DNA from: an uncultured Coraliomargarita sp. | GTDB lineage: Bacteria > Verrucomicrobiota > Verrucomicrobiia > Opitutales > Coraliomargaritaceae | Reading direction: 5' to 3' | Assembly: GCA_964474105.1 (NCBI GenBank) | Contig: CAYYSE010000002.1 | Location: forward strand, 2,032-66,031 | DNA length: 64,000 nucleotides | Shown here: one piece after another, positions 58,594-63,093 of the stretch | Layout of the letters: each line of letters opens with the position of its first letter | How positions within the stretch are numbered: the stretch's first letter is position 1 | Program-made: the position numbers and the translations under genes | The notes under the pieces: generated by a model | Databases searched by the model: none | What the model saw: the letters and a program-made list of their open reading frames with translations, nothing else | Told to the model about the DNA's origin: nothing

Positions 58594-58835
58594 AATGTGC
58601 AATGTAGCGGATAACTCGCTTCCTTGGCAAGTGACTTCCGACTGGTGGACTAATTTTAAGGGCTTGTGTTGGAGTGCTTGATTTTTATGCTTAAATGTGG
58701 GTTGGTATTTGATTACTAGGCATTATTCGCTAATCACCTCTCTAAAGCAGGTTGATCGATGTTTTCAACCAGGTGCATGCCTGCACTTACAGGTGCTTGC
58801 GGTCAGATAATGTAATACTACGGAAATTTAATCAT

Positions 58836-59300
58836 ATGAAACGAAGAGAGGCGACAGGGCAGATATTGAAATCGTCTGCCGAAATGAATGAAATTTATCA
58901 GCAACCCGTATTCGACGAGTTTTCGATCGTTCAGTTGGTGGATAAGCTGCTCTACCTTTGCTGGTATAAAGGCAAGCGCCGGAATGAATACCTGATCAAA
59001 TTCAAGCAGGATACGGCGCGGCTCAAAAAGGAGTCGCTTTCGCGCTTTTCCAATCATTATGAAATCGGTGATTACGAATTTGTATCGGATGCCAGCGGAA
59101 TTGAGGCGGAGGCCTTTCTTGTGATTGGTGAAGGCTTGTTTTTGATTCTGACCAATACTCAATTCAATATGTCTGAAATCGCGGCAAGTCCCTTGTGGAT
59201 TAAGGCTCAAGCCAGCTTTGTCGGGCTTACCGAACGGGTCACTCAAGATCCGGTGGTGGTCTCCGAAGACGATTTCAAGAAATTGATTCCCCTCAATTGA
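58836..59300 (+). CDS. Hypothetical ~154-aa soluble protein, overlapping the polyprenyl synthase start
   Basis: Natural protein-like composition (PVFDEFSIV, GDYEF, EAFLVIGEGLFLI); the stop overlaps the next gene (TTGA). Start taken at ATG 58836. Confidence 0.65.
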   Translation: MKRREATGQILKSSAEMNEIYQQPVFDEFSIVQLVDKLLYLCWYKGKRRNEYLIKFKQDTARLKKESLSRFSNHYEIGDYEFVSDASGIEAEAFLVIGEGLFLILTNTQFNMSEIAASPLWIKAQASFVGLTERVTQDPVVVSEDDFKKLIPLN

Positions 59301-60325
59301 ACTCACGCTCCCAGTCAGAAGTTGATCAAGTCGCTGCCGCCGGATTTAGCGAGGTTTACAATCCGGTGAAGCCCTATCTGGACGAGCTGGACCTTTTTCT
59401 CCAGTCACAGATCGCACAGTTGGAGCCGGAAGTGCAGGAGCACGTGCGCTACGTTTTCAGCCATAGTGGCAAGCGGCTGCGGCCGATGCTGGTGGCTTAC
59501 GGCGGCTGGCAGGGCCCGGCAGCCAACCGCCCGGCGGAGCTGGTGCGGCTGGGATCGATCATCGAATTGGTCCATCTTGCGACACTGGTGCACGACGATA
59601 TTCTGGATGAGGCGGATACCCGCCACCGCCAGCAGACGGCGGCCAGAAAATTCGGCCCCGCTGCCGCCGTCTTGATCGGTGATGTGCTGTTTTCGCACGC
59701 GTTGAAACTGGCCGCCGAATTTGAAACGACCGAGGTCTGCCGCGTCGTCGCCCAGGCGACCGCCCGCGTCTGTGCCGGGGAGATCGCGCAGACCTACCAG
59801 CGCGGCGAGGTCAACTACAGCCGCGATTTTTACTTTCGCGTGATTCAGCTCAAGACCGCTGAGCTGTTTGAAGTCGCCTGTGCGCTGGGGGCTAAAGTCG
59901 GCGGTTATTCGCCGGACTTCAGTGAGGCTGCCGGCCGCTTTGGCCGTCACCTCGGTATTGCTTATCAGATTTTTGATGACCTGGTGGACCTCTACGCCGA
60001 GGAGTCGATGATCGGCAAGACCCTCGGCACCGATCTCGAAAAAGGGAAATTCACCTTGCCGCTGTTGCTGCTGCTGGAAAAGGTGACGCCTGCTGAGCGC
60101 GACGGGTTGCTGGCCCGTTTCAAGTCCGGCGACAGCACCGTCGCGGCGGAGTTTACCCAGCGCTTGCATGATTTCCCGATCTTTGAGGAAGTGGTGGAGG
60201 TCTTCGAAGCGGAGCTGGCCAAGGCCACCGCTGCAGTCGCGCCTTTCAGGGAACTTGCACCGGTGCCCGCCATGCAAAGGATTGCCGGGCTGGTCCGCGC
60301 ACAGCTGAGTCGCATTTCGCGATGA
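59297..60325 (+). CDS. Long-chain trans-polyprenyl diphosphate synthase (IspB/HepT-like)
   Basis: GKRLRP, ELVHLATLVHDDILD, RHRQ, A.LIGD, KTA.LF, AYQIFDDLVD and GK.LGTDL..GK.TLP. Confidence 0.92.
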   Translation: MNSRSQSEVDQVAAAGFSEVYNPVKPYLDELDLFLQSQIAQLEPEVQEHVRYVFSHSGKRLRPMLVAYGGWQGPAANRPAELVRLGSIIELVHLATLVHDDILDEADTRHRQQTAARKFGPAAAVLIGDVLFSHALKLAAEFETTEVCRVVAQATARVCAGEIAQTYQRGEVNYSRDFYFRVIQLKTAELFEVACALGAKVGGYSPDFSEAAGRFGRHLGIAYQIFDDLVDLYAEESMIGKTLGTDLEKGKFTLPLLLLLEKVTPAERDGLLARFKSGDSTVAAEFTQRLHDFPIFEEVVEVFEAELAKATAAVAPFRELAPVPAMQRIAGLVRAQLSRISR

Positions 60326-60443: not shown

Positions 60444-61919
60444 ATGGATACCGCAATTGTGACCGGGGCGGAAACCCCGCTCGGCCTCCGCATCGTTCAA
60501 ACGCTGGTCCAGCAGGGCTGCCGCGTTCACGGCATCGGTAATAATTTCTCCAAGGTCACCTACGCCGACCCCCAGTTTAAAGGGCACGCGGTGGATCTGA
60601 CGGATCTCGCCGCCGTCGTGTCGATTTTGGAACAGATTCTGGAGACGGAGCAGCGTCTCGATATCCTGATTCACGCGATCGATGTGACCCCGGGGACCGC
60701 ATTTGACAAATTACCGCCCGGCAACCTCGAAGCTATTCTCAAAATCGGCCTGCTCGGGCCGGTCATGATGACGCGGCTCGCGCTGCCGAATCTGCTGCGC
60801 TTCCGCGGTCAGCTCATCAATGTGATCACGGCCAACAAGCACGGCCATCCGGCCAGCGCGGCCAATGCGCTGATCGAGGGCGGACTCCGCGGGATGAACC
60901 AGGCGCTGTTCGATCAGGCGCGTGATGCCGGCTTGCGCATCACCAACTGCCTGCTGCGGCAAAACACCCGGCTCTCCGGTGCCAGGGTGGGCGATGAGGC
61001 GATCGCCCAGGCGCATATCAACCTGGCGGATGTCACCCGCACTATCGAACAACTGATCGATCCGAAGGCTGTCAATGTGCCCGCCGAGATCGTGCTCCAC
61101 CCCCGCCTGGCAGCAACGGGTGAAGCTGCCCTGCCGAAGACTCCGTTGCCGCTCGACCCCTACGCCGCAGTTGTGCTGCCGCCCAAGGAATACTTCCCGC
61201 CGGAGCAACCCAGCATCCCCACCGAGAAGCGACAGCAGATCGAACGCACGATTCCCTACACCGACGAGGAGATGGAGGACAAGATCGCCGCCGCCATCGA
61301 AGATTTTGAGGCCCATCCCGAGCGCTATGACCAGCCGGACCGGCCCCCCGCCAAACGCCCGCAGCAGCCGGACCGCCCGCCGGTGAAACAAGCGGAACAG
61401 CGTGGCCCGGCGCAAGGTCAGGATAATTCGCAGCCGGGTCATCCGCCCACCGAAGGACAGGGCAAGAACAAGCGCCGCCGCCGCCGTGGTGGCCGCAACC
61501 GCAACAAGTCCGCGCATGCAGGCGGTGAGGCGAAGCCGCAGGAGACCACTGCCCCGCAGGAACAAGAGAAATCGCAGCAAGTGCAATTGCGCCCGGCGCC
61601 GCAGTCCAGCCAGTCAGGCCGGCGGGATGCGGCAGCACCACCGCTGCTCAAGTCAACCGAGTCGCCACGCCCGGAGGCGTTGCAACCCAAGCCGAAAGCT
61701 TCCTCTAAAAAGGAGGAAGCTGCCAAGCCCACTTTGTCCACTCCGGTAAAAAAATCAGTAGCCAAAAAAGCGACGAAAAAAGCGACGAAAAAAGCGACAA
61801 AAAAGGCGGCCAAAAAAACGGCCAAAAAAACGGTGAAAAAAACCGCTACGAAAAAAACTGCGAAGAAGGTGGCCACGAAAAAAACGGTGAAGCCGGCCAC
61901 CCCGTCGGCTGCGGATTAA
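60444..61919 (+). CDS. Atypical SDR-fold protein with a long disordered tail (Arg-rich, then KK-repeat histone-H1-like)
   Basis: AIVTGAETPLG (degenerate TGxxxGxG), VDLTD, LDILIH and P.EIVLHP; no YxxxK. Followed by KRRRRRGGRNRNK and (KKAT/KKTA/KKTV) repeats. Confidence 0.7.
   Translation: MDTAIVTGAETPLGLRIVQTLVQQGCRVHGIGNNFSKVTYADPQFKGHAVDLTDLAAVVSILEQILETEQRLDILIHAIDVTPGTAFDKLPPGNLEAILKIGLLGPVMMTRLALPNLLRFRGQLINVITANKHGHPASAANALIEGGLRGMNQALFDQARDAGLRITNCLLRQNTRLSGARVGDEAIAQAHINLADVTRTIEQLIDPKAVNVPAEIVLHPRLAATGEAALPKTPLPLDPYAAVVLPPKEYFPPEQPSIPTEKRQQIERTIPYTDEEMEDKIAAAIEDFEAHPERYDQPDRPPAKRPQQPDRPPVKQAEQRGPAQGQDNSQPGHPPTEGQGKNKRRRRRGGRNRNKSAHAGGEAKPQETTAPQEQEKSQQVQLRPAPQSSQSGRRDAAAPPLLKSTESPRPEALQPKPKASSKKEEAAKPTLSTPVKKSVAKKATKKATKKATKKAAKKTAKKTVKKTATKKTAKKVATKKTVKPATPSAAD
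61749..61889 (+). repeat. Imperfect 12-bp tandem repeat (AAAAAAGCGACG-type) encoding KKxx units
   Basis: AAAAAAGCGACG twice exactly (61764-61787), then eight diverged KKxx units with two single-codon insertions. Confidence 0.93.
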
Positions 61920-61930
61920 TGCTTTTTTTC

Positions 61931-62130
61931 GAGCTGGCATCATCTGGTGTTGCGGGGGAATGCGTTCTTAATGGTTCAGACTTGTGTGCGCTTGATTCAG
62001 TGTCGTCACCTTTGATCAGGCCCGGGTGAACCAGGGGAAGGGCGAGCACTTCGTCGCGCTCAAGCACGCCTGAGGTTATAGCTGAAAAACATTAAGATTT
62101 AGCTCTGTTCTCACTGATTGGCGTTAGTTC
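61931..62130 (+). ncRNA. Candidate structured ncRNA (~200-nt irregular rod); identity unknown
   Basis: Nested manual pairings: TCTTAATG/CATTAAGA, TTCAG/CTGAA, GTGCGCTTGA/TCAAGCACGC, AGTG/CACT, CCTT/AAGG and an apical CCCGG..CCAGGG. Several outer pairs are G-U on the plus strand. Confidence 0.3.
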
Positions 62131-62139
62131 TGCTACAAT
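62131..62139 (+). promoter_or_regulatory. Extended -10 element TGCTACAAT, putative promoter for 62239 onward
   Basis: Fits TGnTAnAAT about 100 bp upstream of the ORF; no good -35 is present. Confidence 0.35.
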
Positions 62140-62238
62140 CTGTTTTCTGGGGTGCTGGATTTTCGCCGCCGCAGAAAAGACGGTCACCTTCTTCACCGCA
62201 GTTCGATTGCTCCTGCATCATAAAGCGCACAATTTTTT

Positions 62239-63093
62239 ATGTTTATTATTCACCAAAGTCTCGTCGCCGACGGATCTTATTTCGATAACTCCGAGCCCCA
62301 GCGGCGGCGCCATTTCCGGGGCCGGAATCGTCTGGCAGTTACCGGTGTGGACTGGAACACAGGTGCCGCCATCCCGGTCGATCCACCGGACTGGGACGAT
62401 ATGATCGATTCCAGTTTGCGCATCGGTGTCAATGCCGCGAAAAAAACGTTCAAGCCGGCACTGCTGATATGGGCCGTCATGATTGGCATCGCTGCTTTAT
62501 ATTATCTGTTACCCGCCTCCCGCGGGATTTTTGATGCGATAACCGCGTTTCAAAATCGCACCGGCGTCTATTTTGCCTCCATTGGGATGGGCCTCGCGGT
62601 GGGCGTATTGGTGGAATGTGTCAAAGTCTTGACCAGCACGGAAAAACGCTGGACCCGCGCCAATACGGTCAACGGCACTTTTAACTTCCTGGTATTCGGG
62701 GTAATGGGGGTGACCCAGTATTACCGTTATGCCTGGCAAGTTGAGGTCTTCGGTGCGGGCAATTCCTTTCGGGAACTGACGGCGAAAGTTCTGTTTGATC
62801 AATTCATCTGGACGGTGCTCTTCGCCAACCCTTATCAGGCGATTCTCTACCTGTGGAAAAACAACGGGTTTGTCTGGAAGCCGGTGTTTGAGCTGATGTC
62901 GCCCTTCCGCACATTTTGGGGCACACAAATGCTGCCGGTACTGATTTCCAATTGGGCCTTCTGGATCCCGATGGCCTACCTCGTCTATTTCTTTCCACCC
63001 GAACTGCAGGTGCCGATGGCGATACTGGCCGTGTCCATTTGGGTGGTGCTGCTCTCCTTTTTGACCGCCAAGACAAGCGATGCTGAATCCTGA
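62239..63093 (+). CDS. Mpv17/PMP22-like membrane protein
   Basis: Multi-TM; KVLFDQFIWTVLFANP and ISNWAFWIP...YFFPPELQV......W.VLLS resemble the family signature. Alternative start ATG 62401. Confidence 0.6.
   Translation: MFIIHQSLVADGSYFDNSEPQRRRHFRGRNRLAVTGVDWNTGAAIPVDPPDWDDMIDSSLRIGVNAAKKTFKPALLIWAVMIGIAALYYLLPASRGIFDAITAFQNRTGVYFASIGMGLAVGVLVECVKVLTSTEKRWTRANTVNGTFNFLVFGVMGVTQYYRYAWQVEVFGAGNSFRELTAKVLFDQFIWTVLFANPYQAILYLWKNNGFVWKPVFELMSPFRTFWGTQMLPVLISNWAFWIPMAYLVYFFPPELQVPMAILAVSIWVVLLSFLTAKTSDAES

Follow-up and report, generated by a model that had tools for sequence, protein, structure and literature searches.

What does a protein do when its first half is built like a dehydrogenase and its second half ends like a histone H1? 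The question is raised by the open reading frame (ORF) at positions 60444-61919 of the 64,000-nucleotide stretch of contig CAYYSE010000002.1 analysed here (the window), which belongs to the 3.6-Mb genome of an uncultured Coraliomargarita sp. (assembly GCA_964474105.1). The only database annotation that the family carries is 'SDR family oxidoreductase' (SDR, short-chain dehydrogenase/reductase). An earlier note made from the letters of the sequence had seen in the same ORF a catalytically degenerate SDR joined to an Arg-rich patch and a repetitive Lys-rich tail, and had proposed a metabolite-sensing scaffold that binds the nucleoid or RNA. That the ORF represents a real, conserved and mis-annotated family is well supported by the sequence comparisons reported below, and all that is said of its function is deduced from them. 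The reading that we prefer, with a probability of about one half, is that the protein is cytoplasmic and non-catalytic, that its basic tail binds nucleic acid at the transcribing nucleoid, and that its SDR-fold head has become a structural or partner-binding module. The ORF and its parts are as follows.

60444..61919, + strand: whole ORF, ATG start, 491 amino acids (aa), 53 kDa, isoelectric point (pI) 9.9
60444..61109, + strand: SDR-fold head, residues 1-222, a classical-SDR Rossmann fold without catalytic residues, pI 6.65
60462..60485, + strand: degenerate cofactor loop TGAETPLG, residues 7-14, classically TGxxxGxG; the central Gly is Pro12, and Glu10 stands in the loop
60672..60692, + strand: HAIDVTP, residues 77-83, located by alignment at the NNAG site after strand beta-4, with HAID in place of NNAG
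60864..60878, + strand: NALIE, residues 141-145, at the YxxxK site, with Tyr replaced by Asn141 and Lys by Glu145
61110..61259, + strand: Pro-rich linker, residues 223-272, conserved (LPLDPY..VVLPPKEY.PPE...IPT)
61260..61331, + strand: acidic helix TDEEMEDKIAAAIEDFEAHPERYD, residues 273-296, net charge -8, nearly invariant
61332..61463, + strand: Pro/Gln-rich linker, residues 297-340, disordered (predicted local distance difference test, pLDDT, < 50), variable in length and sequence
61464..61508, + strand: Arg-rich motif KNKRRRRRGGRNRNK, residues 341-355, net charge +10
61509..61739, + strand: spacer, residues 356-432, Pro/Gln/Ser/Ala-rich, poorly conserved
61740..61916, + strand: histone-H1-like tail, residues 433-491, 11 KKxx(x) units, 23 Lys in 59 residues, net charge +22

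The SDR assignment of the head is real but weak at the sequence level. Residues 3-131 match Pfam adh_short (5e-15), and adh_short_C2 is matched too; the NCBIfam matches are to generic SDR models below threshold, the best of which (PRK07326-type, 1e-14, residues 3-220) lies far under its cut-off. An AlphaFold model computed from a 30-sequence family alignment arranges the strands and helices of residues 1-220 in the classical SDR order (pLDDT 50-91), and a Foldseek search of the PDB with this model returned classical SDRs only, with E ~1e-12 and a template modelling (TM) score of ~0.75 on the target (best matches 3un1, 3rkr and FabG). At the level of the fold, both the Rossmann architecture and the order of strands and helices that define an SDR are present, so that the earlier reading of the first ~220 residues is upheld by the Pfam match, the strand order and the TM score together. 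The head shares this fold and order of secondary structure with classical SDRs in general (PF00106; PRK07326/PRK08219-type; 3un1, 3rkr and FabG 1q7b), and it shares the ...ITLRPQ end of strand beta-7 with its nearest active SDR relatives of ~235 aa. Unlike classical SDRs, however, the protein has a replaced tetrad, a degenerate Gly loop, NNAG site and PG motif, and ~270 added residues of disordered polyampholyte. The ORF begins directly at strand beta-1 (MDTAIVTGA) without an extra N-terminal segment and, because of this start as read from the sequence, a cytoplasmic location is likely.

Motif positions were assigned by alignment to the FabG structures 4nbt and 4nbu and to 24 active SDRs of ~235 aa. 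All four residues of the catalytic tetrad Asn-Ser-Tyr-Lys are replaced (by G102, T129, N141 and E145), the GxxRN site for the 2'-phosphate of NADP has Asn instead of Arg, and the PG motif after beta-6 is lost; none of the marks of a classical SDR enzyme (TGxxxGxG, NNAG and the N-S-Y-K tetrad) is found in the head. By every sequence criterion the head is a pseudo-enzyme. It is probably without redox chemistry, and canonical binding of NAD(P) has probably been lost. The replacements are themselves maintained, with N141 and E145 invariant in the alignment of close homologues and the loop near-invariant in the close clade, where it reads exactly TGAETPLG in 50 of the 58 named genomes. Estimates of omega (the ratio of nonsynonymous to synonymous divergence) against a congener and two other genera are 0.074-0.094 for the head and 0.11-0.20 for the linker and helix, and against the congener 0.14 for the alignable tail; all of these values are rough, with synonymous divergence near saturation. 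They place the head under strong purifying selection, and the suspicion of a pseudo-enzyme in the earlier note is borne out by a tetrad that is fully replaced throughout the family under an omega of ~0.07-0.09.

Is the protein real in this form? Its unusual composition, and nothing else, would speak for an artefact, a frameshift or an assembly join of an SDR gene to low-complexity DNA. This candidate was rejected and is extremely improbable, since 58 species genomes have the same continuous ORF, as do over 120 protein clusters from metagenomes and other independent sources. A word-indexed protein search yielded 300 relatives among the scored candidates, and all 120 of those listed are between 374 and 639 aa long. 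Residues 1-300 are nearly invariant in these listed close homologues, degenerate motifs included; all 120 have the KK tail, 119 the acidic stretch and 116 the Arg patch, and the length of the tail varies between 126 and 339 residues. In a scan of one genome per species, the gene was present in 58 named species genomes, where 52 of the 53 complete ORFs carry the tail. Retention of both the degenerate site and the basic tail by homologues, on which the earlier note had made its reading depend, is accordingly the rule, and of the findings that it named as fatal (orthologues generally without the tail, an ordinary active SDR, a junction artefact) each was looked for and none held. Carriers include Puniceicoccaceae, Coraliomargarita, Lentimonas, the cultured Thalassobacterium maritimum and T. 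sedimentorum, and many marine or saline metagenome-assembled genomes (MAGs) of Opitutales; cultured isolates and one closed 3.06-Mb chromosome are among them. Orthologues of 65-68% identity, in the usual context downstream of a HAD phosphatase gene, also occur in MAGs labelled Yoonia sp. and Polaribacter sp., and these are probably mis-binned Opitutales contigs. In two relatives the orthologue is interrupted (CAJJBI010000004.1; G204:C4:136819-137594), one MAG having a 53-aa ORF and the other a split at an in-frame TGA. Such cases would be assembly errors or recent pseudogenisation, and they are consistent with a gene that is dispensable in some lineages.

The coupling between the tail and the loss of chemistry extends well beyond the close homologues. 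An exhaustive HMMER search with residues 1-300 retrieved ~120 further relatives at 25-38% identity, followed by ordinary SDRs of ~235 aa. Most distant relatives are 400-830 aa in length, with alignments that start at residue 1, and Arg patches, KKxx-type tails, or both are seen in the majority of these long proteins. When tailed and short proteins are separated at 320 aa, 101 of 136 relatives are tailed and lack the catalytic Tyr and Lys (Y/K), 3 are tailed and keep them, 24 are short and keep them, and 8 are short and lack them, the last being mostly entries just below the cut-off or truncated. The association between tail and Y/K loss has a Fisher p of 8e-17 (uncorrected for phylogeny), the Y/K state is explained by 3 changes on a tree of the heads only, and the nearest tail-less SDRs of ~235 aa keep S/YxxxK. 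Gain of the tail is coupled with catalytic loss across the tree.

The pattern of conservation within the head points the same way. Compared to active short SDRs, the 101 tailed members are less conserved at the Gly loop (-0.28), the NNAG site (-0.29) and the PG loop (-0.23), as well as at beta-5 and alpha-F, and they are more conserved at beta-2 (RVYGxG, +0.16) and beta-7 (ExVxRP, +0.12). Because it is the cofactor and active-site elements that are specifically relaxed, a shared catalytic or canonical cofactor-binding function is argued against. The residues invariant across the tailed superfamily are mostly Gly, Pro and hydrophobic, and the few conserved polar ones (D2, N211, R160, R111 and R27) lie outside the tetrad and the known cofactor-contact positions. 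Metabolite sensing, which the earlier note had built into its proposal, is not supported for this clade, given a Gly loop, NNAG site, NADP-site Arg and PG motif that are all degenerate and cofactor sites that are relaxed throughout the tailed members.

The same evidence bears on the possibility of a remodelled pocket, in which the head would be an enzyme or a ligand sensor built on the invariant N131-K132, S138, N141, E145, H77 and D80 and the tail would only localise it. The pocket-lining motifs are indeed invariant in the close clade, and one large tailed clade of Verrucomicrobia, including 'Candidatus Moanabacter tarae', keeps a canonical TGAASGLG, NNAK and the tetrad Asn, so that dinucleotide binding may survive there. 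However, no polar pocket residue is common to the two clades (NK.G..SA.NALIE versus RGGPVGAA), the superfamily invariants are of the kinds and at the positions just described, the cofactor elements are the most relaxed parts of the head, and four tetrad residues are gone. On balance, we regard a remodelled pocket as quite unlikely.

If the head is not catalytic, the activity of the protein would be sought in its disordered C-terminal half, which has a pI of 10.15. AlphaFold predicts disorder past residue ~300, with a pLDDT of only ~30-35 in the KK tail, and an isolated, confident helix at residues 274-290 (pLDDT 80-87). In addition to the charges listed above, the net charge is -1 for the head, -1 for the Pro-rich linker, +1 for the Pro/Gln-rich linker and +3 for the spacer. 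Charge in the disordered region is segregated to a degree beyond all 500 shuffles (kappa 0.28 versus 0.17 +/- 0.03), a property that is compatible with the formation of condensates. All of the strings quoted in the earlier note are where it had put them, with TGAETPLG at residues 7-14, ANALIE at 140-145, DEEMEDKIAAAIEDFE at 274-289 and NKRRRRRGGRNRNK at 342-355, and its estimate of about 11 KKxx units proves exact, the 11 KK units lying within residues 436-481. The tail is encoded by 6.5-8.2 tandem copies of a 12-nt unit (61764-61864). A looser version of the Pro-rich linker (LPP..PPE..IPTP) persists in distant clades.

Within the disordered region, the Arg-rich motif is the sole island of conserved sequence, with R346, R347, R348, G350, R351, N352 and R353 invariant in the alignment of close homologues. 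The patch is unique to this ORF within its genome, RRRGGRNR-like versions of it recur in some clades of 30% identity, and a search for the motif RRGGRNR brought up viral and synthetic peptides only. Short patches rich in Arg, Gly and Asn within disordered sequence are found in the tails of RNase E and of DEAD-box helicases, where they bind RNA. The patch described here is similar, but it is a single invariant island of 12-15 residues, and no nuclease or helicase domain accompanies it, the Pfam and NCBIfam matches of the protein being to SDR-type families only.

The tail is a long series of short tandem repeats rich in Lys and in Ala, Pro or Thr that forms a basic disordered domain, which is the hallmark of H1-like bacterial proteins. 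Database searches place it no more precisely: the linker, helix and tail gave only noise against Pfam (E <= 10) and against PDB sequences (E <= 10), and PF07382 (HC2) did not match the tail of this ORF even at E <= 10, although precomputed PF07382 matches exist on the tails of some relatives. Chlamydial Hc1 and Hc2 (PF07382) come from the same Planctomycetes-Verrucomicrobia-Chlamydiae (PVC) superphylum and have similar Lys/Ala-rich repeats; unlike the present protein they lack an enzyme-fold head, and the likeness of the tails is compositional, with homology not demonstrated. Pseudomonas AlgP and PhaF are built on the same architectural plan, each having a folded N-terminal domain followed by a long Lys/Ala-rich repeat tail, and experiments have shown that tails of this KPAA/KKxx type bind DNA in AlgP (PMC9239181) and RNA, namely mRNA, in PhaF (PMC12818456). 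The differences are that the heads are unrelated, neither of theirs being an SDR, that the repeats are KPAA there and KKxx with Thr, Ala or Val here, that the organisms belong to another phylum, and that the acidic helix and the invariant Arg-rich motif are additional here.

The precedent of AlgP also suggests that the Lys-rich tail might bind polyphosphate and tether or space polyphosphate granules. AlgP is located at such granules and its H1-like KPAA tail is needed for their spacing (PMC9239181), and both PPK1 and PPK2 are encoded in the Coraliomargarita genome. PPK genes, however, occur so widely that finding them says little, and synteny of the tailed gene with ppk genes was not found. 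A role as a polyphosphate-granule protein also sits poorly with the other KK-tract proteins of the genome, which belong to the transcription machinery; we would give it a slim chance.

Those other proteins bear on where the tail might act. Among the 8867 ORFs of the genome, ORF 60444-61919, present as a single copy in its own genome, has the highest Lys density (20 Lys in 40 aa), and comparable KKxx tracts occur on only four other real proteins, identified by Pfam as sigma-70, Rho, a DksA/TraR zinc-finger protein and a CopG-type ribbon-helix-helix (RHH) protein.

C14:18002-20104, C5:2739-4718, C4:4750-5778 and C48:13849-14493, outside the window: the four KKxx-tract proteins of the same genome, from the Lys-density scan

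The Lys-rich extension, of KKxx/KKAA type, is N-terminal in sigma-70, Rho and the DksA/TraR protein and C-terminal in the RHH protein (214 aa). All four companions act on DNA, RNA or RNA polymerase, so that proteins associated with transcription may share a Lys tag peculiar to this lineage, and the composition of the tail is far from chance for this organism.

Given a net charge of +22 for the tail and +10 for the Arg patch, companions with KKxx tracts in transcription, and the tails of AlgP and PhaF as precedents, binding of a polyanion is likely. Binding of nucleic acid by the tail is plausible and is the best explanation that the sequence and these analogies offer. In the mechanism that we propose, the protein would act through its disordered half, where the Pro-rich linker, the acidic helix, the Arg-rich motif and the KKxx tail would together bind a cellular polyanion, most likely nucleic acid in the form of DNA and/or nascent RNA. 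The role left to the head would be structural, through contact with a partner or through self-association, and in this way the protein would link or coat nucleic acid instead of transforming a metabolite, and the acidic helix may fold back onto the basic blocks and thereby modulate binding.

A bolder form of this proposal would make the dead dehydrogenase fold a new class of chromatin or transcription-condensate protein in marine Opitutales. The head would self-associate or dock to a partner, the block-polyampholyte tail (acidic helix, RRRGGRNRN and H1-like repeats) would bridge DNA and/or nascent RNA, and the protein would assemble together with the Lys-tagged sigma-70, Rho and DksA-like proteins. 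We consider this version speculative and on the whole unlikely; if it were true, a lineage-specific KKxx tag would organise the transcription machinery.

An SDR fold used for binding or regulation would not be without parallel. NmrA and HSCARG/NMRAL1 are non-catalytic SDR-fold regulators of the atypical NmrA family that have kept dinucleotide binding, and SDR5C1/MRPP2 is a moonlighting, catalytically active SDR that scaffolds an RNA-processing complex, mitochondrial RNase P. These proteins use the fold as is proposed here, but none has a basic disordered tail. The present protein is also not of the NmrA type, for which an intact Gly motif, a lost catalytic Tyr and a match to the family model would be expected: PF05368 (NmrA) is not among its Pfam matches at E <= 0.1, and it is the sister clade that keeps TGAASGLG.

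Several results weigh against a nucleic-acid-binding protein of the nucleoid. The composition of the tail does not tell DNA, RNA and polyphosphate apart, and the host has the PPK1 and PPK2 genes mentioned above. TGAETPLG and NK.G..SA.NALIEGGL are invariant in the close clade, an indication that the region of the old pocket is still under selection. An oligomer interface at alpha-E/alpha-F was considered as the selected feature of the head and rejected, as these helices are of average conservation (0.49-0.50 versus 0.48 overall in the 101 tailed members). The acidic helix has a hydrophobic moment no different from that of shuffled sequences (p = 0.24) and is not significantly amphipathic. Finally, distribution is patchy. 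In a survey of 301 genomes across the phylum, strong tailed orthologues came from five sister families within the order and from the protein's own family, in which 13 of 22 genomes have one; the 9 genomes without the gene are 1.3-2.5 Mb in size and belong mostly to two small-genome genera. Another large family of the order lacks the gene in 26 of 26 genomes, and these genomes, like those of other classes, contain almost solely matches to ordinary SDRs of ~250 aa, with the exception of a few weak long ORFs. Because of this patchy presence, the gene is lineage-specific and dispensable in some relatives, and its absence from these two sets of genomes means that it is not a universal component of chromatin.

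Genomic context enters into two further explanations. Directly upstream of the ORF, with a gap of 118 nt, lies one gene that is given here as context only.

59297..60325, + strand: trans-polyprenyl diphosphate synthase (Pfam polyprenyl_synt, 2e-60)

In 35 of the 58 species a HAD phosphatase precedes the tailed gene in the same direction, in 20 a polyprenyl synthase does, and intergenic gaps are 118-674 nt. The commoner arrangement, with the HAD phosphatase, sits among ogt, recA, mnmE, mnmG, miaB, a GGACT-family gene and ispH. A functional tie to the polyprenyl synthase seemed conserved at the first three loci and was rejected when sampling was extended to 58 species; adjacency to this gene is one of two genomic arrangements of a gene in a housekeeping region and carries no pathway link. 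The tie would have suited a membrane-associated partner of the synthase, with the polybasic tail lying on anionic lipids and the head serving as a non-catalytic subunit in isoprenoid or menaquinone synthesis. In its favour, the synthase stands upstream on the same strand here and in those 20 species while the wider neighbourhoods differ, but in the 35 species with the HAD phosphatase upstream there is no polyprenyl synthase nearby, translational coupling is unlikely across intergenic gaps of 118-219 nt, and the protein has no hydrophobic or amphipathic membrane segments. Such a partnership is very unlikely.

The second explanation is that of an RNA-specific regulator or chaperone: particular transcripts, rRNA or ribosomes would be the targets of the Arg motif and the KKxx repeats, by analogy with PhaF and its KPAA repeats, and a partner would be recruited through the head. 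Binding of RNA is a classic property of Arg-rich motifs, and because the Arg patch is the only invariant island in the disordered region, a specific target is suggested. The neighbourhood in most species holds the tRNA-modification genes miaB, mnmE and mnmG, together with recA and ogt, and the H1-like disordered region of PhaF binds the 5' untranslated regions of mRNAs and activates their translation (PMC12818456). However, no RNA-binding domain was detected in Pfam searches, the neighbourhood is one of generic housekeeping genes, the strict Arg-patch pattern is matched by just 18 of 79 distant tailed relatives, and RNA and DNA are not separated by the present evidence. A dedicated role with RNA seems unlikely, if worth bearing in mind, and binding at the transcribing nucleoid is the reading that we retain.

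As the earlier note had found the architecture unfamiliar, it may be added that no dedicated Pfam or NCBIfam family exists for it, and a literature search turned up no paper that describes a verrucomicrobial protein with an SDR-like part and an H1-like tail; one on DNA-associated proteins of Waddlia was not to the point. The bacterial proteins with H1-like tails (Hc1/Hc2, AlgP, PhaF and mycobacterial HupB) form a small set of emerging organisers of chromatin, polyphosphate granules and translation, to which this family adds an order-wide member, found in at least 58 species, some of them represented by cultured strains. The head clearly exemplifies an enzyme fold repurposed after its chemistry was lost. 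In practical terms, the label "SDR family NAD(P)-dependent oxidoreductase" inflates metabolic reconstructions of marine Verrucomicrobiota, which are abundant polysaccharide degraders, and the Arg motif and acidic helix, standing in an otherwise drifting disordered region, provide handles for mutagenesis. The occurrence of the same type of Lys tract on sigma-70, Rho and the DksA-like factor hints at a shared principle of localisation.

Around the ORF itself, little else stands out. Rfam families matching its flanks were not found, promoter-like and terminator-like sites in the flanks do not rise above background, and on neither strand does the downstream gap at 61917-62140 (224 nt) reach a folding energy better than that of dinucleotide shuffles (z = +0.20 and -0.12). 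An Rfam match to CRISPR-DR12 inside the coding region (61661-61686, - strand; 20.6 bits, E = 0.78) is due to chance. The downstream ORF at 62239-63093 (284 aa) has the appearance of a multi-pass membrane protein, with a weak, sub-threshold Mpv17/PMP22 match (E = 0.015), and it is not kept beside the tailed SDR in other genomes. Further upstream, between a META-domain gene and the polyprenyl synthase, an ORF of 182 aa at 58752-59300 lies in a trough of 45% guanine plus cytosine (GC) between flanks of ~60-68% GC; it has no Pfam or NCBIfam match and may be an orphan or an acquired gene.

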